Of a stretch of DNA of 64,000 nt, positions 15,793 through 55,774 are shown in pieces. The DNA is from Escherichia coli (GTDB lineage Bacteria; Pseudomonadota; Gammaproteobacteria; Enterobacterales; Enterobacteriaceae). The stretch lies in assembly GCF_030384885.1 (NCBI RefSeq), contig NZ_CP128613.1. One strand, 5' to 3'. Position 1 is the stretch's first letter; each line of letters opens with the position of its first letter. Both the position numbers and the translations under genes were made by a program. The notes beneath the pieces are model-generated. The model was not told the origin of the DNA. It saw only the letters and a list, made by a program, of their open reading frames with translations, and did not search any database.

Positions 15793-16605
15793 ATGGCAAC
15801 AACACAACAATCTGGATTTGCACCTGCTGCATCACCTCTCGCTTCGACCATCGTTCAGACCCCGGATGACGCGATTGTAGCAGGCATCACCTCTATCCCT
15901 TCACAAGGGGATAACATGCCTGCTTACCATGCCAGACCAAAGCAGAGCGATGGCCTACTACCAGTGGTCATTGTAGTGCAGGAAATTTTTGGCGTGCATG
16001 AACATATCCGCGATATTTGTCGCCGTCTGGCGCTGGAGGGGTATCTGGCTATCGCACCTGAACTTTACTTCCGCGAAGGCGATCCGAATGATTTTGCCGA
16101 TATCCCTACGCTGCTTAGCGGTCTGGTAGCAAAAGTGCCTGACTCGCAGGTGCTGGCCGATCTCGATCATGTCGCCAGTTGGGCGTCACGCAACGGCGGC
16201 GATGTTCATCGCTTAATGATCACCGGATTTTGCTGGGGTGGACGTATCACCTGGCTATATGCTGCGCATAACCCGCAACTGAAAGCGGCGGTGGCATGGT
16301 ACGGCAAACTGACAGGCGATAAGTCGCTGAATTCACCGAAACAACCTGTTGATATCGCAACCGATCTTAACGCGCCGGTTCTCGGCTTATATGGTGGTCA
16401 GGATAACAGCATTCCGCAGGAGAGCGTTGAAACCATGCGCCAGGCGCTGCGGGCTGCTAATGCGAAAGCAGAGATTATCGTCTACCCGGATGCCGGGCAT
16501 GCATTCAACGCCGATTATCGCCCGAGCTATCATGCTGAGTCGGCGAAAGATGGCTGGCAGCGTATGCTGGAGTGGTTTAAGCGGTATGGTGGGAAACGGA
16601 ATTAG
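15793..16605 (+). CDS. ysgA: Dienelactone hydrolase-family protein YsgA (DlhH)
   Basis: ORF 15727..16605; start trimmed to MATTQQSGFAPAASPLAS...; alpha/beta hydrolase motif GFCWGG. Confidence 0.85.
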   Translation: MATTQQSGFAPAASPLASTIVQTPDDAIVAGITSIPSQGDNMPAYHARPKQSDGLLPVVIVVQEIFGVHEHIRDICRRLALEGYLAIAPELYFREGDPNDFADIPTLLSGLVAKVPDSQVLADLDHVASWASRNGGDVHRLMITGFCWGGRITWLYAAHNPQLKAAVAWYGKLTGDKSLNSPKQPVDIATDLNAPVLGLYGGQDNSIPQESVETMRQALRAANAKAEIIVYPDAGHAFNADYRPSYHAESAKDGWQRMLEWFKRYGGKRN

Positions 16606-16996
16606 TTTCCTCTTATTCTATATTTGAGATGGTGAGTGAACGAATGCGTTTTGCTGCCATCTCTGTCCCCCAAAAAATAATCAGTATGAATTGATTGGAG
16701 AGCACGACTCCGCTATTTGACCTTAAGAAAGTCGGCAAGTCATAGTCATAAATGAGTCTCTTCACTGGCAGACACCTTAAAGATTTACCATCAACTCCCA
16801 TTCTCAAACAAACATTAATTATTATCAACACATTCACATTAATTATAAATTACCTCAGACCTTCCTGATAAAAAGATATTAAAGTGAAACATTTTGTTTT
16901 TCACATTTTAGTTCATCCCTTTTAGGCGTAAATAAAGGTAAAAAATAACAATACTATTTTTCTTTCACAAAAAAATTAACAAAAGGTTTTTCAAGG

Positions 16997-18145
16997 ATGA
17001 GTGATATTATCTACCTGACCATAACCGGAGAACAACACGGATGTATTTCCTCTCGTTGTGGAACGAGCACATCAATAGGTAATCGCTGGCAGATTGGTCA
17101 TGAAGATGAAATCTTCGCATTCTCGCTCTCTAATAGTATTACGAATACAGGAAAAGGGTCACATTTGCATGGCCTTAGTTTCTGTAAGTTGATTGACAAA
17201 AGCTCCCCGTTACTTATTAACGCTATTAACAATAACGAGCAGTTGTTCATGGAGTTTGACTTCTATCGGATCAATAGATTTGGTCGATGGGAGAAATATT
17301 ACAACATTCAACTCCGCGGCGCGCTCTTATCAGCAATCAATCACCTGTTTACGGAGAACAATCTGGATACAGAAACCATCACTGTCAGTTATGAATATAT
17401 ACTCTCCAGGCATCTGATTGCTAATACTGAATTTAGTTATTTGGCATTTCCCGATAACTACAATCGTCTGTTTATACCACGGCCAAAAACTAAAGATGAT
17501 AATGGCCTCAAAACACTCAATAGTAAAGCTGTTGGCAGACTGCTTGCTGCTGGCGGCATATACAATGGGAATATCGAAGGATTCAGGGAAACAGCAAACA
17601 AGTTGGGGGGAGATGCACCTGCTGGTTACGATCAAGTTATGGATAACAAAGGGTTACTCATCGCTGGTGCTTCAATAGTTGCTGGAGCAGTTCTGGGGAG
17701 AATGAGACTCCCTGATTTGGAATCACTTGAGCATTTCGGAGCCAGAGGAGCAGTATCAGGAAGACCATTTAATCCCGACCTTGCCGGTGGTCCAATAGAA
17801 AATCTGACGACAGATGGCGTAACAATCAACAGGGAAGGTATCGCTATTGTTGAAAAACACATAGCCAGATTTGGTCATGACCCTGTAAATGAAGTGATGA
17901 TCAATAGACTGAAAGACATTGAGAAAGGAAAAATCCCCCCAGAACAAGTAGATCTTAACTTCTATACTCATGAATGTCGGGAATATCAGCGTTACTGTAA
18001 TCTTGGTTGGGAAACAGGACAACCTGATGGTGACGCAGGCTATGCACTCTGGAATCATACGCATACTGCTACTCTAGAAGATTATAAACTTAAGGGAGAA
18101 CTTAATGACTTATACCACCAGGACGCACTTGACTATGATAACTGA
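16997..18145 (+). CDS. Hcp (T6SS tube protein TssD) N-terminal domain fused to a C-terminal extension of unknown function, Hcp-ET-like; not associated with a T6SS gene cluster
   Basis: 382 aa; residues 1-155 carry the Hcp hallmark ...HGLSFCKLIDKSSPLLINAINNNEQLFMEFDFYRI...; residues about 156-382 are an extension with no Hcp counterpart; RBS AAGGA upstream; AT-rich. Confidence 0.75.
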   Translation: MSDIIYLTITGEQHGCISSRCGTSTSIGNRWQIGHEDEIFAFSLSNSITNTGKGSHLHGLSFCKLIDKSSPLLINAINNNEQLFMEFDFYRINRFGRWEKYYNIQLRGALLSAINHLFTENNLDTETITVSYEYILSRHLIANTEFSYLAFPDNYNRLFIPRPKTKDDNGLKTLNSKAVGRLLAAGGIYNGNIEGFRETANKLGGDAPAGYDQVMDNKGLLIAGASIVAGAVLGRMRLPDLESLEHFGARGAVSGRPFNPDLAGGPIENLTTDGVTINREGIAIVEKHIARFGHDPVNEVMINRLKDIEKGKIPPEQVDLNFYTHECREYQRYCNLGWETGQPDGDAGYALWNHTHTATLEDYKLKGELNDLYHQDALDYDN

Positions 18146-29800: not shown

Positions 29801-30691
29801 ATGGATATCAAACAAACGCGGCAGGGCGTATTACTCGCTCTTGCCGCTTATTTTATTTGGGGTATTGCGCCAGCGTACTTCAAGCTGATTTACTACGTGC
29901 CCGCCGATGAGATCCTGACGCATCGCGTGATCTGGTCGTTTTTCTTTATGGTGGTGCTGATGAGCATTTGCCGCCAGTGGTCCTATTTAAAAACGCTGAT
30001 TCAGACACCACAGAAAATTTTTATGCTGGCAGTCTCTGCCGTGCTGATTGGTGGCAACTGGCTACTGTTTATCTGGGCGGTGAACAATCACCATATGCTG
30101 GAAGCGAGCCTTGGTTACTTTATTAACCCGCTGGTGAACATTGTGCTGGGGATGATTTTCCTCGGCGAGCGATTCCGCCGGATGCAATGGCTGGCGGTGA
30201 TTCTGGCGATATGTGGTGTATTGGTCCAGCTCTGGACTTTTGGTTCGCTGCCAATCATCGCGCTGGGGCTGGCGTTTAGTTTTGCCTTCTACGGCCTGGT
30301 ACGCAAGAAAATTGCCGTTGAAGCGCAAACCGGCATGTTAATCGAAACCATGTGGCTGCTGCCCGTGGCGGCGATTTACCTGTTTGCTATTGCCGACAGC
30401 TCAACCAGCCATATGGGGCAAAACCCGATGTCGCTGAATTTACTGCTGATCGCCGCCGGTATTGTCACCACCGTGCCACTGTTATGTTTTACCGCAGCAG
30501 CTACACGCTTACGACTCTCAACATTAGGCTTTTTCCAGTACATTGGGCCGACGCTAATGTTCCTGTTGGCAGTGACGTTTTATGGTGAAAAACCGGGAGC
30601 CGATAAGATGGTGACTTTCGCCTTTATTTGGGTAGCGCTGGCAATTTTTGTGATGGATGCGATTTATACGCAGCGTAGAACGTCCAAATAA
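29801..30691 (+). CDS. rarD: EamA/DMT-family transporter RarD
   Basis: 296 aa MDIKQTRQGVLLALAAYFIWGIAPAYFKLIYYVPADEILTHRV... Confidence 0.9.
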   Translation: MDIKQTRQGVLLALAAYFIWGIAPAYFKLIYYVPADEILTHRVIWSFFFMVVLMSICRQWSYLKTLIQTPQKIFMLAVSAVLIGGNWLLFIWAVNNHHMLEASLGYFINPLVNIVLGMIFLGERFRRMQWLAVILAICGVLVQLWTFGSLPIIALGLAFSFAFYGLVRKKIAVEAQTGMLIETMWLLPVAAIYLFAIADSSTSHMGQNPMSLNLLLIAAGIVTTVPLLCFTAAATRLRLSTLGFFQYIGPTLMFLLAVTFYGEKPGADKMVTFAFIWVALAIFVMDAIYTQRRTSK

Positions 30692-30785
30692 AAAATAAAT
30701 ATATTCTGAAAAAATATGCCGACTCTTGCATGAGAGTGGGCATATTGCCATGCTGACAGGAGACTCACACAAGGATGTAAAATTT

Positions 30786-31166
30786 ATGTTGCGTATATTT
30801 ATCCCAACATCTAACGGTAAGATTTCCAGACGTCGTTATATATTTTCATTTATTTTAATAAATTTCATTTTTGCCTTTCTTATTATCTTTTTTAACGATG
30901 GGGACGCAGGTTTTCTTGTTATTGTCTCTACCATCGCACTCCATTATCTCGTCATCAACATGAATTGCCAACGACTCCGTGATAGTGGTTTCATATATAT
31001 AAAAACTTATATTTTTGGTACATTAGCAGTATATATCATCTCTATCATCACAATGATAGCCGAACATTTTGATTGTTCAGGCAATGGTTCGATGATTTTT
31101 TTGATTTGTTATTTTTCCACTTTCAGTATGCTAATGCTTGCACCTACTGATTCATCAAAACAATAG
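30786..31166 (+). CDS. yigG: Small inner-membrane protein YigG (start uncertain; alternative start at 30726)
   Basis: ORF 30726..31166; internal Met gives [24 protein letters not shown]... (126 aa); AT-rich, hydrophobic. Confidence 0.55.
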
Positions 31167-31179
31167 TTATGGAGTATTT

Positions 31180-31560
31180 ATGAGTAAGGAATATATGAAC
31201 GATGGTTCATTAAGTGAAAAATGGAAATATCGCTTTAGTTTTTATGATCAACATGGCTTTCCTGGATTCTGGGGGGCAACACCAGAATATAAAGCAGCAT
31301 TTAAAGCATTAAAAGTAAGACAACGATTAACTATTCAAATTAATTTCATTGCTTTCTTCTGTTCCTGGATCTATCTATTTGTTCTGGGTTTATGGAAAAA
31401 AGCAATTATAGTTCTATTACTTTGCATTCTATCTCTATTTGTTGGTGCACTAATTGGCGTTAACATTTTGGGAATTGCCGTAGCAGCCTATGTTGCTGTT
31501 AACACGAACAAATGGTTTTATGAGAAAGAGGTAAAAGGGTTAAATACCTGGAGCCTTTGA
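31180..31560 (+). CDS. yigF: Small inner-membrane protein YigF (DUF2628)
   Basis: ORF 31138..31560; internal Met gives MSKEYMNDGSLSEKWKYRFSFYDQHGFPGFWGA... (126 aa). Confidence 0.6.
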   Translation: MSKEYMNDGSLSEKWKYRFSFYDQHGFPGFWGATPEYKAAFKALKVRQRLTIQINFIAFFCSWIYLFVLGLWKKAIIVLLLCILSLFVGALIGVNILGIAVAAYVAVNTNKWFYEKEVKGLNTWSL

Positions 31561-31602
31561 ATAACTGGTGGCTTAGCCGGGCTAAACCACCACTCTCGTT
31601 TT

Positions 31603-49572: not shown

Positions 49573-50769
49573 ATGCTAAAAGTGTTATTGCTCTTTGTGT
49601 TGCTGATTGCGGGGATCGTGGTCGGCCCGATGATTGCCGGTCATCAGGGTTACGTGCTGATCCAGACCGATACCTACAATATCGAAACCAGCGTCACGGG
49701 CCTGGCGATCATTTTGATTCTGGCGATGGTAGTGCTGTTTGCCATTGAGTGGCTACTGCGGCGGATCTTCCGCACAGGCGCACACACCCGTGGGTGGTTT
49801 GTCGGACGTAAGCGTCGCCGTGCCCGTAAGCAGACCGAACAGGCGCTGCTGAAACTAGCGGAAGGCGATTATCAGCAAGTTGAAAAGCTGATGGCGAAAA
49901 ATGCCGATCACGCTGAACAACCGGTGGTGAACTATCTGCTGGCTGCCGAAGCCGCGCAACAACGCGGTGATGAAGCACGCGCCAACCAACATCTGGAACG
50001 CGCAGCGGAGCTGGCCGGCAACGACACAATTCCGGTAGAAATCACCCGTGTACGTCTGCAACTGGCCCGTAATGAAAACCATGCAGCACGTCACGGCGTT
50101 GATAAGCTGCTGGAAGTTACGCCACGCCATCCGGAAGTATTACGTCTGGCGGAACAGGCGTATATCCGCACTGGTGCATGGAGTTCGCTGCTGGATATCA
50201 TCCCATCAATGGCAAAAGCCCACGTTGGCGATGAAGAGCATCGTGCAATGCTGGAACAACAGGCATGGATTGGCCTGATGGATCAGGCGCGTGCCGATAA
50301 CGGTAGCGAAGGTTTGCGTAACTGGTGGAAAAACCAAAGCCGGAAAACGCGTCATCAGGTGGCGTTACAGGTGGCAATGGCGGAACATCTTATTGAATGT
50401 GACGATCATGATACTGCCCAGCAAATTATCATCGACGGCCTGAAACGCCAGTATGACGATCGCCTGCTGCTGCCGATCCCGCGTCTGAAAACCAATAACC
50501 CGGAACAGCTGGAAAAAGTGCTGCGCCAACAGATCAAAAACGTGGGCGATCGCCCGTTGTTGTGGAGCACACTGGGTCAGTCGCTGATGAAGCACGGCGA
50601 ATGGCAGGAAGCATCGCTCGCCTTCCGCGCGGCGCTGAAACAACGTCCGGACGCCTACGATTACGCATGGCTTGCCGACGCGCTGGACAGACTGCACAAG
50701 CCGGAAGAAGCCGCAGCGATGCGTCGCGATGGCTTGATGTTAACGTTGCAGAACAACCCGCCACAGTAG
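49573..50769 (+). CDS. hemY: HemY protein (TPR-containing inner-membrane protein)
   Basis: 398 aa MLKVLLLFVLLIAGIVVGPMIAGHQGYVLIQTDTYNIETS... Confidence 0.9.
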   Translation: MLKVLLLFVLLIAGIVVGPMIAGHQGYVLIQTDTYNIETSVTGLAIILILAMVVLFAIEWLLRRIFRTGAHTRGWFVGRKRRRARKQTEQALLKLAEGDYQQVEKLMAKNADHAEQPVVNYLLAAEAAQQRGDEARANQHLERAAELAGNDTIPVEITRVRLQLARNENHAARHGVDKLLEVTPRHPEVLRLAEQAYIRTGAWSSLLDIIPSMAKAHVGDEEHRAMLEQQAWIGLMDQARADNGSEGLRNWWKNQSRKTRHQVALQVAMAEHLIECDDHDTAQQIIIDGLKRQYDDRLLLPIPRLKTNNPEQLEKVLRQQIKNVGDRPLLWSTLGQSLMKHGEWQEASLAFRAALKQRPDAYDYAWLADALDRLHKPEEAAAMRRDGLMLTLQNNPPQ

Positions 50770-50780
50770 CTCTTTCTCAC

Positions 50781-50805
50781 CCGGAGGCAAGCACCTCCGG
50801 GGCCT
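50781..50805 (+). terminator. Hairpin CCCGGAGG-caagca-CCTCCGGG immediately after hemY; putative rho-independent terminator
   Basis: Inverted repeat followed by a T-rich stretch. Confidence 0.45.
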
Positions 50806-50816
50806 TTCTGATATAT

Positions 50817-51013
50817 AAAAAAACGCCTGCTCTTATTACGGAGCAGGCGTTAAAACAGGTCTGTATGACAACAAGTGGGTGCTTCACTCAACGTTGTGTC
50901 CATGGTGTCTGATGAGGCATAAGCGACATCTGTCAGTGGACGATAAGCACCGTAAACGGCTCTGCGTCATTCCGGAGTTTATGAGGCACTAAGGCGAACA
51001 TAAGAGATGGAAT
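50817..51013 (-). ncRNA. glmZ: Small RNA GlmZ (SraJ/RyiA), regulator of glmS
   Basis: Reverse strand reads GTAGATGCTCATTCCATCTCTTATGTTCGCCTTAGTGCCTCATAAACTCCGGAATGACGCAGAGCCG... and ends in terminator GCCTGCTCCGTAATAAGAGCAGGCGTTTTTTT; matches GlmZ as recalled and its known hemY-aslA intergenic position; exact 5' end within a few nt. Confidence 0.8.
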
Positions 51014-52898
51014 GAGCATCTACTCGTTTATTATGCCACAGAGAACCGGGAAATAACATCCCTTAACACTTGTTATGAGATAATTCTGTAATCCTCTTTG
51101 CTTCCTGAGTAATAACTTCCTGAGTGAATATTTCTCCTGCGCACGATTCTACACATATATATAATGAATAATAAAAGTCATTCAATTAATAACATATATA
51201 TTAATTGCCGTTAAAACTAAAAACAGCATCAATAATCAACGCGATATAACATCACCGCCTTACATATCACCTGCGCCAGAGGTAGGATTGAAAACGCTCT
51301 CCTGATTTTCCAATTCATTATCTGGATAAATAAATAATTTATTTTTATCACTATTATTTATGCAATCATCCTGTCAGGGAGAAGGATCTCAATTATCAAT
51401 GCTTAATTACGTCAACATTTTGACGACATGAAACCGGAGCATTTTGCATGGAATTTTCGTTTTCACCCAAACTTCTTGTTGTGGCTGTCGCCGCCGCTCT
51501 TCCACTCATGGCCAGCGCAGCAGATACCCCGTCAACCGCCACCGCACGCAAAGGCTTTGCCGGATACGATCACCCAAACCAGTATCTGGTTAAACCGGCG
51601 ACCACTATTGCCGACAACATGATGCCGGTGATGCAGCATCCTGCACAAGACAAAGAAACCCAGCAGAAACTGGCGGAACTTGAGAAAAAAACCGGTAAGA
51701 AACCGAACGTGGTTGTTTTCTTGCTGGATGATGTGGGCTGGATGGACGTTGGCTTTAACGGCGGCGGCGTGGCGGTGGGTAACCCTACACCAGATATCGA
51801 CGCCGTTGCCAGCCAGGGGCTGATTTTAACTTCGGCGTATTCTCAACCGAGTTCTTCCCCAACCCGCGCCACGATTCTCACCGGACAATACTCCATCCAC
51901 CACGGCATTCTGATGCCGCCAATGTACGGGCAACCGGGCGGTCTGCAAGGGTTAACCACGCTGCCACAGTTGCTGCACGATCAGGGCTACGTCACCCAGG
52001 CTATCGGGAAATGGCATATGGGGGAAAACAAAGAGTCGCAGCCGCAGAACGTTGGCTTTGATGATTTCCGCGGCTTTAACTCGGTATCTGATATGTATAC
52101 CGAATGGCGTGATGTTCATGTCAACCCGGAAGTCGCCCTGAGCCCGGATCGTTCTGAATACATCCAAAAACTGCCGTTCAGCAAAGATGACGTTCATGCC
52201 GTGCGCGGCGGTGAACAGGAAGCCATTGCCGACATTACGCCGAAATATATGGAAGATCTGGATCAACGCTGGATGGAATATGGCGTTAAGTTCCTCGACA
52301 AGATGGCGAAGAGCGATAAGCCTTTCTTCCTCTACTACGGCACTCGCGGCTGTCACTTCGATAACTACCCAAATGCGAAATATGCGGGTAGCTCTCCGGC
52401 GCGCACCTCTTACGGCGACTGCATGGTGGAGATGAACGATATCTTCGCCAATCTGTATAAAGCACTGGAGAAAAACGGTCAGCTTGATAACACGCTGATT
52501 GTGTTCACCTCTGATAACGGTCCGGAAGCTGAAGTTCCGCCGCACGGTCGCACGCCGTTCCGCGGTGCGAAAGGTTCTACATGGGAAGGCGGCGTTCGTG
52601 TGCCAACCTTCGTTTACTGGAAAGGGATGATCCAACCGCGTAAATCTGACGGTATTGTCGATCTGGCGGATCTCTTCCCTACGGCGCTGGATCTGGCAGG
52701 ACATCCTGGAGCGAAAGTGGCGAATTTAGTGCCGAAAACCACCTTTATTGATGGTGTGGACCAGACATCTTTCTTCCTGGGAACAAATGGTCAGTCTAAC
52801 CGTAAGGCCGAGCACTACTTCCTCAATGGCAAACTTTCTGCTGTGCGTATGGATGAGTTCAAGTATCACGTCCTGATCCAGCAACCGTACGCGTATAC

Positions 52899-54148
<1,250 letters not shown>

Positions 54149-54400
54149 CCACTACATACCCAGAGCGGGTATCAGGGTGGATTCACCGGCACTGTAATGC
54201 AAACGGCGGGATCGTCGGTGTTTAACCTGTACACCGATCCGCAGGAAAGCGACTCTATCGGCGTGCGCCATATCCCAATGGGTGTACCGCTACAGACCGA
54301 AATGCACGCGTATATGGAGATCCTGAAAAAATATCCGCCGCGCGCGCAGATTAAATCTGATTAAGCCGGCGCTATCGCTACATCGGGCCACACTGACCTT

Positions 54401-54538: not shown

Positions 54539-55774
54539 TTACTTATTCACCACCATCAAATGCGCCTGCATAATGTCGCTGGCCGGACGACCGTGCGCCA
54601 GCAAATCAGCCATTGCTTTAAGATATGGCGGTAGATAGCGGAAATAACGCTGATACCCGGCACACAAGTAATTTAGCCCCGGCTTACCGCTGGCATCGAG
54701 CATAAAGCGGTGTTTCGGGCAGCCTCCCCAACATGCTTTTAACACGTTACAACTGCGACACTGCGCCGGTAACTGCTTAAATTTATTTTCTCCAAACACC
54801 TGCTGCTGCGGGGAATCTACCATTTCTGCAATTGTTTGCTGAAGCATATTCCCCAGTCGATATTGCGGATAAACATAGTGATCGCAGGCGTAAACGTCGC
54901 CGTTGTGTTCGACAATCACCGAGCGTCCACAGGTCGGCTGATGATGGCAAACCGCACCCGGCGCACCGACAAAATTGGCAAACGCCCATTCGGTATTCAT
55001 CACGAAAATCTTGCCGACGTCACGTTTGATCCAGTGGTCAAAAATTGCCACCAGAAACTCACCGAACTCATCGGGGCGCACCGACCATTCTGTCAGTTCC
55101 CCCTGAATATCACCAGGCGCATGTAATTTCAGTCCATTGCGGGCAGCTGTTTCATCAGCCAGGCGCTCCACCACCGGAATAAACTGGATGAACTCCACGC
55201 CTGCATTGCACAAAAAATCATAAACCTGTAACGGTTGCTGCGCGCTGGTGCGGTTGACACAGACCAGCACGTTATAGTCGACATGATGTTTTTGCAGGAG
55301 CGTCAGGGCACGCATCACCAGCTTATGCGTGGGTCTGCCACCTTTGGTCACGCGATATTGATTGTGGATCTCAGCCGGACCGTCCAGCGATAACCCAACC
55401 AGAAAATGATTTTCTGCCAGAAATGAACACCATTCATCATCGAGCAGCACACCGTTAGTCTGAAAGCTGTTACTTACCTTCCTACCAGCACCATATTTCG
55501 CCTGTAGCGCCACGGCACGGCGGTAAAAATCCAGCCCGAGTAACGTTGGTTCGCCGCCCTGCCAGGTAAAAGCCACTTCGTTTTGGGGTTCGCTGGCAGC
55601 GATATAGTGACGGACATACGCTTCCAGCGTGTCATCGTCCATATGCGCAACTGGCTTTTCGCGGTAAAGGGATTGTTTTTCGAGATAAAAACAGTAGTCA
55701 CAGTTCAGATTACAATCGGAACCGCTTGGTTTCGCCATCACATGAAAAGCACGCGTTGGAACCTGTTGCAGCAT
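54539..55774 (-). CDS. aslB: Anaerobic sulfatase-maturating enzyme AslB (radical SAM)
   Basis: ORF 54539..55804; start trimmed to MLQQVPTRAFHVMAKPSGSDCNLNCDYCFY (CxxxCxxC radical SAM motif); 411 aa. Confidence 0.9.
   Translation of the reverse strand: MLQQVPTRAFHVMAKPSGSDCNLNCDYCFYLEKQSLYREKPVAHMDDDTLEAYVRHYIAASEPQNEVAFTWQGGEPTLLGLDFYRRAVALQAKYGAGRKVSNSFQTNGVLLDDEWCSFLAENHFLVGLSLDGPAEIHNQYRVTKGGRPTHKLVMRALTLLQKHHVDYNVLVCVNRTSAQQPLQVYDFLCNAGVEFIQFIPVVERLADETAARNGLKLHAPGDIQGELTEWSVRPDEFGEFLVAIFDHWIKRDVGKIFVMNTEWAFANFVGAPGAVCHHQPTCGRSVIVEHNGDVYACDHYVYPQYRLGNMLQQTIAEMVDSPQQQVFGENKFKQLPAQCRSCNVLKACWGGCPKHRFMLDASGKPGLNYLCAGYQRYFRYLPPYLKAMADLLAHGRPASDIMQAHLMVVNK

Follow-up and report, generated by a model that had tools for sequence, protein, structure and literature searches.

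The AT-rich spacer between glmZ and aslA in Escherichia coli as an ordinary divergent promoter region

A long AT-rich gap separates the small RNA gene glmZ from the divergently oriented gene aslA, a gene reported as a determinant of invasion in the meningitis-causing E. coli K1, and the question raised by this locus is what the gap does and to which of its two neighbours it belongs. The window analysed here is a 64-kb stretch of E. coli DNA (64,000 nucleotides) with 51.5% GC. The spacer, bounded by the glmZ +1 (51023, minus strand) and the aslA ATG (51448), has 33.5% GC (66.5% A+T versus 48.5% in the window), and the genes flanking it have 53–56%. Only three stretches in the 64-kb window are equally AT-rich over 424 bp. 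In a near-identical reference strain, in which the ranking was computed, this spacer ranks first in length among the 27 spacers measuring 60 bp or more, and its GC content (0.337) is the second-lowest of the 27, the mean of 10 divergent spacers being 0.411. Thus, the long AT-rich region that a sequence-only reading had placed upstream of aslA is borne out, although its limits need correction, since a start at 51020 takes in the first 4 nt of glmZ and the glmZ promoter lies inside the region instead of merely abutting it.

The spacer is an ordinary divergent promoter region, an already-studied AT-rich stretch holding the promoters of both genes, and in this respect it is known and not new. The best explanation of its organization, to which we assign a probability of roughly 70%, is a divergent control region of two unequal parts, namely the glmZ promoter and an H-NS-bound region upstream of aslA. 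The coordinates of the features are collected in Table 1. In this strain, aslA itself is interrupted by an IS3-family element that carries orfA and orfB and is flanked by a duplication of 4 bp, and the interrupted reading frame comprises 488 aa versus 551 aa in the reference. The element is annotated elsewhere as 'IS3 family transposase' and, among the best matches listed, none spans the aslA flank.

Table 1. Features of the glmZ–aslA locus, in coordinates of the window
Feature	Position	Strand	Basis or remark
glmZ small RNA gene	50817–51023	minus	Rfam RF00083, 218.4 bits, full-length match
glmZ terminator	50822–50851		terminator-like site from scan
glmZ–aslA AT-rich intergenic spacer	51024–51447 (424 bp)	strandless	GC 0.335
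glmZ sigma-70 promoter	51030–51059	minus	-35 ATGTTA (51054–51059), 15-nt spacer, extended -10 tggCATAAT (51030–51038)
Promoter-like TTAACA-N18-TGTAAT	51063–51092	plus	faces aslA, back-to-back with glmZ promoter; published best-match prediction only
Least conserved part of spacer	51093–51160	strandless	5–40% invariant columns in sliding windows
Conserved block AAAAACAGCATCAATAATCAAC	51219–51240	plus	~-75 to -55 relative to the predicted start of aslA
Candidate aslA core promoter CTTACA-N18-TAGGAT	51259–51288	plus	inferred from conservation
Conserved segment TGAAAACGCTCTCCTGAT	51289–51306	plus	directly 3' of candidate -10; 85% invariant windows in Escherichia
Promoter-like site	51377–51350	minus	scan
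Promoter-like site	51392–51365	minus	scan
Conserved leader block GGATCTCAATTATCAATGCTTAATTACG	51384–51411	plus	invariant in six Escherichia lineages except one T-to-C in E. albertii
Small hairpin/inverted repeat	51410–51427	plus	just 5' of Shine-Dalgarno sequence
aslA Shine-Dalgarno GGAG and ATG	51436–51439 and 51448–51450	plus	RefSeq aslA start at same position in reference strain
aslA	51448–54364	plus	5' part 51448–52898; 3' remainder 54156–54364
IS3-family element, ~1257 bp	52899–54155		inside aslA; orfA and orfB; collinearity break

Conservation of the spacer and its glmZ side

The spacer is present in 5406 of 5426 complete E. coli genomes, with no annotation inside, and its counterpart in K-12 (NC_000913.3, 3986008–3986431) likewise measures 424 bp. 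It is under constraint and more conserved than neutral sites: 58% of its columns are invariant across six Escherichia lineages versus 29% of the 4-fold sites of aslA, and identity between the window and K-12 amounts to 94.1% in the spacer versus 79–85% at the 4-fold sites of aslA and hemY. The earlier proposal of a regulatory region 5' of aslA is therefore right, and the case is stronger than originally put, given these invariant columns and the recurrence of an AT-rich region upstream of aslA in two genomic contexts (see below).

The glmZ side of this region is well understood in K-12, where deletion and point mutation defined the promoter ATGTTA-N15-tggCATAAT (Göpel 2011, NAR 39:1294; PMC3045617). 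The first 40 bp were found to contain this sigma-70 promoter, nothing upstream of -40 is required by glmZ, and the regulator GlrR does not bind the K-12 glmZ fragment from -424 to +32 (PMC3045617). In the window, the exact motif occurs on the minus strand (51059–51030), ends 6 nt before the glmZ +1 and is invariant across the six Escherichia lineages. The leftmost ~40 bp of the spacer (51024–51063) are the constitutive sigma-70 promoter of glmZ, as shown experimentally in K-12, whose promoter motifs recur in the window. The glmZ gene shows 100% identity to K-12 glmZ; in the Klebsiella oxytoca group, identity to E. coli glmZ is 96–97%.

The aslA side and its binding proteins

The remaining ~385 bp would constitute the upstream region of aslA itself. 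Read towards the gene, this part would consist of a poorly conserved AT-rich stretch, the conserved block at 51219–51240, a weak promoter at 51259–51288 and then a leader. To our knowledge, no aslA promoter has been mapped to date. The least conserved stretch harbours a tandem duplication of 15 bp (CTTCCTGAGTAATAA/CTTCCTGAGTGAATA, 51101–51130) that is specific to E. coli and absent in E. albertii, E. whittamii and the lineages L052 and L066. The block AAAAACAGCATCAATAATCAAC is conserved across Escherichia and recognisable in Pseudocitrobacter as AAAAACCGCAATAATAATCAAAG, and it is a candidate site for an activator or an architectural protein.

Downstream of this block, the hexamers CTTACA and TAGGAT are invariant in the six Escherichia lineages while the intervening N18 is variable, and the same promoter-like architecture is found in Pseudocitrobacter, Kluyvera, and Superficieibacter. 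The pattern YTTACA-N18-TARKAT, defined post hoc, has a single match in the 64-kb window, with 0.03 expected. This footprint points to a probable weak sigma-70-type promoter of aslA, with 4/6 and 4/6 matches and an 18-nt spacer, and the predicted start site at ~51294–51296 would leave a leader of ~152 nt. TTTACA may instead represent a factor site and not a -35, because the spacing is 15 nt in the cassettes linked to maeB. The segment TGAAAACGCTCTCCTGAT directly follows the candidate -10, and TGAAA is likewise found 3' of the -10 in the Citrobacter cassette.

The leader would be AT-rich and ~150 nt long; ahead of the ribosome-binding site it would contain a block that hardly varies and a small hairpin. 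Within the block GGATCTCAATTATCAATGCTTAATTACG, AATGCTT (51398–51404) is complementary to GAGCATT (51437–51443) at the aslA ribosome-binding site, and RNAalifold on the 3' end of the leader pairs columns 15–21 with 54–60. All columns of this putative anti-Shine-Dalgarno pairing are invariant; it is not kept in Pseudocitrobacter. The hairpin reads CGTCAA-CATT-TTGACG in the window and GTCATC-ATTTT-GATGAC in K-12, two substitutions specific to the window re-forming a stem of 6 bp in another register. RNAalifold also finds here one compensatory change from T-A to A-T (E. albertii) and one G-U pair (L066); the hairpin is a weak lead. The N-terminus of AslA that follows is signal-peptide-like.

Protein binding to this region has been recorded in vitro. 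In genomic SELEX with K-12 W3110, the aslA<>glmZ spacer was marked with H-NS sites and an RpoD holoenzyme site (Shimada 2014; PMC3946193), which lends published in vitro support to the suggestion of nucleoid-protein-bound DNA. For the RpoD peak, TTAACA-N18-TGTAAT was given as the aslA-side promoter (PMC3946193); this element is partly conserved in Escherichia and was not seen in other genera. It differs from the candidate at 51259–51288. The published 'glmZ-side' promoter of the same study, TTGAGA-17-GATGAT (51392–51365, minus strand; PMC3946193), is rejected here on account of its distance of 340 bp from the real start of glmZ and its lack of a conserved -10. On naked MG1655 DNA, the aslA probe set c4719 is better transcribed by E-sigma70 than by E-sigmaS, with a ratio of 2.54 (PMC3141248). 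The available part of the Kim 2012 data (PMC3415461) lists glmZ and not aslA, which is not readable as absence of an aslA start site.

Regarding H-NS, a class of 'short' bound regions upstream of operons has been described (Kahramanoglou 2011; PMC3064808). The high-affinity motif TCGATAAATT is not enriched in the spacer, where one match with 2 mismatches occurs, and window-wide its matches are not above chance. A full-text literature search for aslA together with H-NS or ChIP returned nothing relevant. Composition and published binding suggest that the spacer is probably H-NS-silenced. Low GC content, and not intrinsic curvature, would make the region a platform for H-NS, which, in the laboratory, would hold down an aslA promoter that RNA polymerase could otherwise use, until some signal or antagonist relieves the silencing.

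Genomic context, origin and alternative explanations

The spacer belongs to the aslA–aslB cassette, encoding a sulfatase and its maturase, and not to glmZ. The adjacency of aslA and glmZ is restricted to Escherichia, Kluyvera, Pseudocitrobacter, and Superficieibacter electus, with spacers of 400–500 bp and 30–34% GC. In ~35 other Enterobacteriaceae loci, the glmZ upstream region (146–605 bp) leads directly to the tRNA Pro-Leu-His-Arg genes, with thrP next in almost every case, and most of these loci carry TGGCAC-N5-xTGCA and TGTC-N10-GACA sites. The same aslA–aslB pair adjoins maeB in Citrobacter and in a Salmonella-labelled assembly, where the region upstream of aslA measures 442–616 bp, has 31–35% GC and contains the element TTTACA-N15-TAGTAT/TTATAT. 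The border of a tRNA-integrated island was also considered for the spacer and rejected: a direct repeat of the tRNA 3' end is absent from it, and tRNA-Pro with its flank shares no word of at least 9 nt with the spacer in either orientation.

Several other explanations of the AT-rich stretch have to be weighed against the divergent control region. Intrinsically curved DNA with helically phased A/T tracts, whose curvature recruits nucleoid proteins, would suit a very AT-rich sequence bound by H-NS in SELEX, and local bends are indeed predicted, the sharpest (18.7 deg/turn) at 51442 on the aslA start codon and a moderate one (11.6 deg/turn) at 51200–51219. However, the phased tracts and the curved DNA described from the sequence alone did not hold up. 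A/T homopolymers 4 nt or longer are not in excess (8 versus 6.4 ± 1.9 in dinucleotide shuffles), and Fourier analysis reveals no periodicity of 10–11.5 bp, the AA/TT power being 0.42 versus 0.56 ± 0.26 in shuffles, 64% of which reach 0.42. A wedge-model prediction of the kind that had been proposed as a check gave an average spacer, with a mean of 6.36 deg/turn, compared with 6.53 overall in the window, which places it at the 45th percentile among windows of 424 bp; its maximum falls at the 84th percentile when the maxima of such windows are ranked. The values are comparative only, with controls behaving as expected (phased-A6 ~23.4 deg/turn, unphased 4). On these predictions, the curvature model is largely refuted in silico and must be regarded as very unlikely. 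Neither is it likely that the spacer encodes a further small RNA or small protein that annotation has missed. Such AT-rich DNA is rich in promoter-like sequence, RpoD binds it in vitro, and two minus-strand promoter-like sites and the conserved hairpin could be taken as signs of a gene, yet promoter-like matches are at shuffle level (2 versus 2.3 ± 1.6), with a non-conserved -10 in the minus-strand site, and a convincing terminator is absent, the one weak terminator-like site in the spacer (51258–51241, minus strand) belonging to a count within shuffle range over 50700–51600. Moreover, glmZ is the sole Rfam match even at E<=1, folding energy is ordinary on both strands (z-scores of -0.16 and -0.68), and a Shine-Dalgarno sequence is missing from all 15 small reading frames with 10 or more codons, although 2 of the 15, both in otherwise conserved blocks, keep start, frame and stop in all six Escherichia lineages. 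The expectation of further small transcripts is thus unsupported by these scans.

The composition could also lack any function and have arisen neutrally, through horizontal acquisition or through mutational bias in a non-coding gap. The patchy distribution of the cassette in two insertion contexts, a spacer that is not blastn-alignable between genera and the freely evolving segment 51093–51160 would agree with this, as would the use of the spacer as an insertion site for foreign genes in the engineering of MG1655 and W3110 (PMC9345386), the tolerance of which fits with no essential element being present and agrees with the divergent control region as well. Nevertheless, conservation about twice that of 4-fold sites, the maintenance of length and composition across genera and contexts, the discrete conserved blocks with their promoter-like element and the ordinary 51–53% GC of aslA and aslB themselves render it improbable. 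Finally, glmZ is controlled in most Enterobacteriaceae by a sigma-54/GlrR/IHF enhancer, of which the spacer could be a degenerate relic. In other genera, the ~250 bp preceding glmZ harbour IHF sites and three sites for GlrR (PMC3045617), our motif scan located sigma-54/GlrR motifs in Salmonella, some Citrobacter (R56, NCU1), Enterobacter, and others, and E. coli retains TGGCA beside the glmZ -10. Against this, the TGGCAC-N5-TTGCA-type -24/-12 promoter (GG-N10-GC) and the TGTC-N10-GACA GlrR sites (~-150, -213, and -245) are absent from E. coli and from every aslA-linked spacer even with one mismatch, and the IHF consensus WATCAANNNNTTR has no exact match in the spacer, the nearest sequence being TATCAATGCTTAA (51394–51406, one mismatch). 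GlrR fails to bind and the spacer is dispensable for glmZ in K-12, as described above, and a similarly long AT-rich region with the same promoter-like element precedes aslA where glmZ is not its neighbour. For practical purposes this explanation is refuted, and its probability is close to nil.

The divergent control region thereby retains the main weight, and a more specific account of its origin is possible but tentative. The spacer would be a portable module of a mobile aslA–aslB cassette, comprising an H-NS-silenced aslA promoter (start ~51295) and a ~150-nt leader in which AATGCTT and the hairpin gate the ribosome-binding site; its insertion or recombinational import beside glmZ in the Escherichia lineage would have replaced the sigma-54/GlrR/IHF enhancer and uncoupled the synthesis of GlmZ in E. 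coli from signalling by QseE/QseF. The glmZ-adjacent cassette lies between glmZ and the proM tRNA operon, where the ancestral sigma-54/GlrR/IHF region, presumably displaced, is absent. Cassette insertion is not the sole route to loss of the sites, because Klebsiella and Raoultella lack them without carrying aslA there.

Significance and comparison with known systems

These results have little significance beyond good annotation, as the glmZ side was dissected in 2011 and the binding of RNA polymerase and H-NS was catalogued in 2014. Footprinting across genera nevertheless provides a precise candidate promoter for aslA, and a spacer travelling with aslA–aslB offers a concrete scenario for how sigma-54/GlrR control, retained in most relatives, could have disappeared from E. 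coli glmZ. Furthermore, users of this popular 'neutral' integration site should beware of the conserved aslA control elements and of the glmZ promoter within 40 bp.

With the sigma-54/GlrR(QseF)/IHF regions of glmY and glmZ in Salmonella, Yersinia, Citrobacter, and Enterobacter, the spacer shares its position directly upstream of glmZ, and the -10-proximal ~20 bp can be aligned with Salmonella glmZ (TGTGGCATAAT in E. coli, TGTGCAATAAT in Salmonella). Unlike these regions, it has no -24/-12 promoter, GlrR sites, or IHF consensus, is unrelated to them beyond ~-20 and is followed by aslA–aslB instead of the tRNA operon. Textbook phased A-tract bends are of the kinetoplast type or occur as curved sequences upstream of rRNA or hns-regulated promoters. 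The spacer resembles them in high A+T content only, its periodicity and predicted curvature being at background.

In comparison with H-NS-bound AT-rich spacers (PMC3064808) and the class in which RpoD and H-NS overlap (PMC3946193), the glmZ–aslA spacer has in common 66.5% A+T, a position upstream of an operon, a length under 1 kb and in vitro binding of RNA polymerase and H-NS. It differs in that H-NS binding to it is known in vitro and is accompanied by neither intrinsic curvature nor a good match to the high-affinity motif. The published dissection of the K-12 aslA–glmZ region (Göpel 2011; PMC3045617) dealt with the glmZ side only, the aslA promoter, H-NS and the origin of the spacer not being its subject. 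That region is the same locus as the one described here, with 424 bp, 94% identity and the same glmZ promoter motifs.

Setting and base composition of the glmZ–aslA spacer

The gene glmZ, on the minus strand, starts at 51023 and the start codon of aslA lies at 51448 and, therefore, the AT-rich leader described in the sequence-only reading is the 424-bp intergenic region 51024–51447, hereafter the spacer. Its K-12 counterpart (NC_000913.3, 3986008–3986431) also measures 424 bp, is 94% identical and contains no annotated feature. The 731 bp around the spacer were matched in 5425 of 5426 complete E. coli genomes, with strain 2013C-4282 as the best match (99.9%), and at least 80% of the spacer itself is carried by 5406 of them.

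Features of the glmZ–aslA locus (window positions)
Feature	Position	Strand	Remark
hemY	49573–50769	+	preceded by hemX
glmZ	50817–51023	-	Rfam RF00083, 218 bits
glmZ–aslA intergenic region	51024–51447		424 bp
Conserved block	51027–51090		glmZ promoter and ~30 bp further
Conserved block	51219–51240		AAAAACAGCATCAATAATCAAC
Candidate aslA promoter	51259–51288	+	CTTACA...TAGGAT; cross-genus comparison
Conserved block	51260–51306		TTACATAT...GGTAGGATTGAAAACGCTCTCCTGAT
Conserved A/T block	51330–51346
Nearly invariant block	51384–51411		GGATCTCAATTATCAATGCTTAATTACG; one T-to-C change in E. albertii
aslA ribosome-binding region			conserved
aslA start	51448	+
aslA parts	51448–52898 and 54156–54364	+
IS3-family orfA	52935–53282
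IS3-family orfB	53402–54148

The AT-richness ascribed to this region is borne out, with a GC content of 33.5% versus 51.5% for the window and 51–56% for hemY, aslA and aslB, and just three stretches in the whole window are equally AT-rich over 424 bp. Of the 27 spacers with 60 bp or more in the annotation of a near-identical reference strain, it is the longest and has the second lowest GC content (0.337 versus a mean of 0.411 for ten divergent spacers). The two other stretches of matching AT-richness are the ysgA–tssD spacer (~16546–17311, 391 bp, GC 0.32), followed by a tssD (Hcp-like) gene for which the reference annotation records a frameshift, and yigG–yigF (~30600–31590), which covers these two small genes, yigF being annotated as frameshifted.

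Phased A/T tracts and curved DNA, also proposed from the sequence, are not supported. The spacer holds eight homopolymer A/T tracts of at least 4 nt, within the range of dinucleotide shuffles (6.4 ± 1.9), and its AA/TT power spectrum has no 10–11.5 bp peak, 64% of the shuffles equalling the spacer. Curvature was predicted with a Bolshoy–Trifonov-type wedge model, whose values serve for comparison only, and phased-A6 and unphased controls gave 23 and 4 deg/turn, respectively. On this scale, the spacer averages 6.36 versus 6.53 deg/turn for the window (45th percentile), and its sole local peak (18.7 deg/turn at 51442) falls on the aslA start codon.

The gene served by the spacer is a pseudogene in this strain. 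An IS3-family element of ~1257 bp at 52899–54155 splits aslA after codon 484, and a 4-bp duplication marks the junctions. In 2013C-4282, the closest complete genome, aslA is intact (551 aa), and none of the best matches listed for the element in a search of 5426 genomes spans the aslA flank; thus, the insertion looks strain-specific.

Promoters, bound proteins and conserved blocks

Exactly this "aslA-glmZ intergenic region" was studied by Göpel et al. 2011 (PMC3045617), whose 5' deletions showed that glmZ requires nothing upstream of -40. In the same study, a fragment from -424 to +32 was not bound by GlrR, and the glmZ upstream sequences of E. coli and Klebsiella were reported not to align with their sigma-54/GlrR/IHF-type counterparts in other genera. 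The K-12 motifs are unaltered in the window (51059–51030, minus strand), and the glmZ promoter has been shown to be the first 40 bp of the spacer, with nothing further required. In genomic SELEX, the aslA<>glmZ spacer is among the type-A spacers binding RpoD holoenzyme and is marked "HNS", i.e., as containing H-NS binding sites (Shimada et al. 2014, PMC3946193). RNA polymerase and H-NS have each been shown to bind the spacer in vitro, in agreement with the proposed occupancy by nucleoid proteins. The best-match promoter predictions of that study (PMC3946193) are TTAACA-18-TGTAAT for aslA (51063–51092) and TTGAGA-17-GATGAT for glmZ (51392–51365, minus strand), the latter not being the real glmZ promoter. 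In a run-off assay with naked MG1655 DNA as template, the aslA probe set c4719 is listed as better transcribed by E-sigma70 than by E-sigmaS, with a ratio of 2.54 (PMC3141248). In E. coli K1, aslA mRNA is raised indirectly by RpoE (PMC9147696). Strain builders have also integrated DNA into the chromosome at the spacer (PMC9345386). Overall, the spacer is an ordinary divergent promoter region, rich in AT and already described in the literature.

The view of the spacer as regulatory is strengthened by an alignment of six lineages: the window, K-12, E. albertii and E. whittamii, along with two divergent genomes that bear the label "E. coli" (L052 and L066). Invariant columns make up 58% of the spacer versus, in the same genomes, 29% of the fourfold degenerate sites and 42% of the third codon positions of aslA and, thus, the spacer is under constraint. 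Between the window and K-12, identity is 94.1% in the spacer and 100% in glmZ, versus 79% and 85% at the fourfold sites of aslA (51448–52898) and hemY; the figure for aslB (54539–55774) is 80%. This synonymous divergence is very high for one species, despite proteins that are 95–99.7% identical. The constraint is arranged in blocks (see table), and the least conserved part, 51093–51160, varies almost freely. It contains an E. coli-specific 15-bp tandem duplication (CTTCCTGAGTAATAA/CTTCCTGAGTGAATA, 51101–51130), which the window shares with K-12 and which is absent from the other four lineages.

The further small transcripts once suspected here find no support. At E ≤ 1, Rfam matched glmZ alone; promoter-like and terminator-like matches in 50700–51600 were within the range of shuffles; folding energy was ordinary on either strand (z-scores -0.16 and -0.68); and a Shine–Dalgarno sequence precedes none of the 15 ORFs with 10 or more codons, just two of which have a start, frame and stop conserved throughout the six lineages, both inside otherwise conserved blocks. 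A small lead, drawn from the alignment, is a 6-bp putative hairpin at 51410–51427, just 5' of the aslA Shine–Dalgarno sequence, whose stem is maintained through one compensatory change (E. albertii), one G-U pair (L066) and, in the window strain, two substitutions restoring it in a shifted register. The equivalent place in Pseudocitrobacter holds another hairpin, CTTC-ATGTG-GAAG. RNAalifold also pairs the invariant AATGCTT (51398–51404) with a GAGCATT that lies at the ribosome-binding site; every one of these pairs is invariant, and the pairing is not retained in Pseudocitrobacter.

Association of the spacer with aslA–aslB and the history of glmZ control

A scan for the glmZ 5' pattern, with one genome per species, yielded 120 loci, of which 97 contain glmZ. 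In ~35 Enterobacteriaceae loci (including Salmonella, Citrobacter, Enterobacter, Klebsiella, Raoultella, Atlantibacter, Kosakonia and Siccibacter), the glmZ upstream region meets tRNA Pro-Leu-His-Arg genes after 146–605 bp, with thrP next in nearly all, and most bear TGGCAC-N5-xTGCA and TGTC-N10-GACA sites near -150, -213 and -245. Among the scanned loci, aslA adjoins glmZ only in Escherichia, Kluyvera, Pseudocitrobacter and Superficieibacter electus, where a convergent aslB lies downstream wherever the fetched sequence extends that far. All these spacers measure 400–500 bp with 30–34% GC, show no blastn similarity between genera and contain no sigma-54 or GlrR motifs. AslA orthologues with 83–84% identity adjoin maeB in Citrobacter and one Salmonella-labelled assembly, with an upstream region of 442–616 bp (31–35% GC) and, in Citrobacter contigs of sufficient length, again a convergent radical-SAM maturase; more distant homologues (74–76%), which are arranged differently, are preceded by short gaps. 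From this distribution, we infer that the spacer belongs to aslA rather than to glmZ and is portable with the aslA–aslB cassette. Uliginosibacterium (Betaproteobacteria), a deltaproteobacterium and an endosymbiont have homologues with 75–76% identity (P0018, P0031 and P0025), nearly as close to AslA as some Citrobacter and Enterobacter copies, which points to a wide horizontal spread of this sulfatase.

Common to all glmZ-linked spacers is (C/T)TTACA-N18-TA(G/A)(G/T)AT on the aslA strand, a pattern defined post hoc that occurs in 0.4–0.8% of the shuffles of each spacer and once in the 64-kb window, versus 0.03 expected. Within Escherichia, both hexamers are fixed while the 18 nt between them change, which is the signature of a promoter. 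At a similar distance to the start codon, the maeB-linked cassettes have TTTACA-N15-TAGTAT, then TGAAA (Citrobacter), and TTTACA-N15-TTATAT (Salmonella). If this candidate is a promoter, transcription would start at ~51294–51296 and leave a leader of ~152 nt.

Most likely, the spacer beyond the glmZ promoter acts as an aslA control region travelling with aslA–aslB, whose base composition, and not curvature, would provide a platform for H-NS to silence a weak sigma-70 promoter ~150 nt upstream of aslA. Where the cassette lies beside glmZ, it would have displaced the sigma-54/GlrR/IHF enhancer that controls glmZ in most other Enterobacteriaceae. This enhancer is also missing from Klebsiella and Raoultella, yet aslA is not there. 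In the Klebsiella oxytoca group and "Enterobacter sp. JUb54" (L056, L102, L117 and L100), glmZ is 96–97% identical to that of E. coli, versus ~90–94% in Salmonella, Citrobacter, Kluyvera and Pseudocitrobacter, and the sigma-70-type promoter GATCCTGTGCGATAAT is similar to that of E. coli and Kluyvera, which suggests that glmZ, together with its promoter, was exchanged horizontally or underwent conversion. Since the Klebsiella and Raoultella glmZ is unusually close to that of E. coli, transfer and secondary loss may also have entered the history of the region upstream of glmZ.
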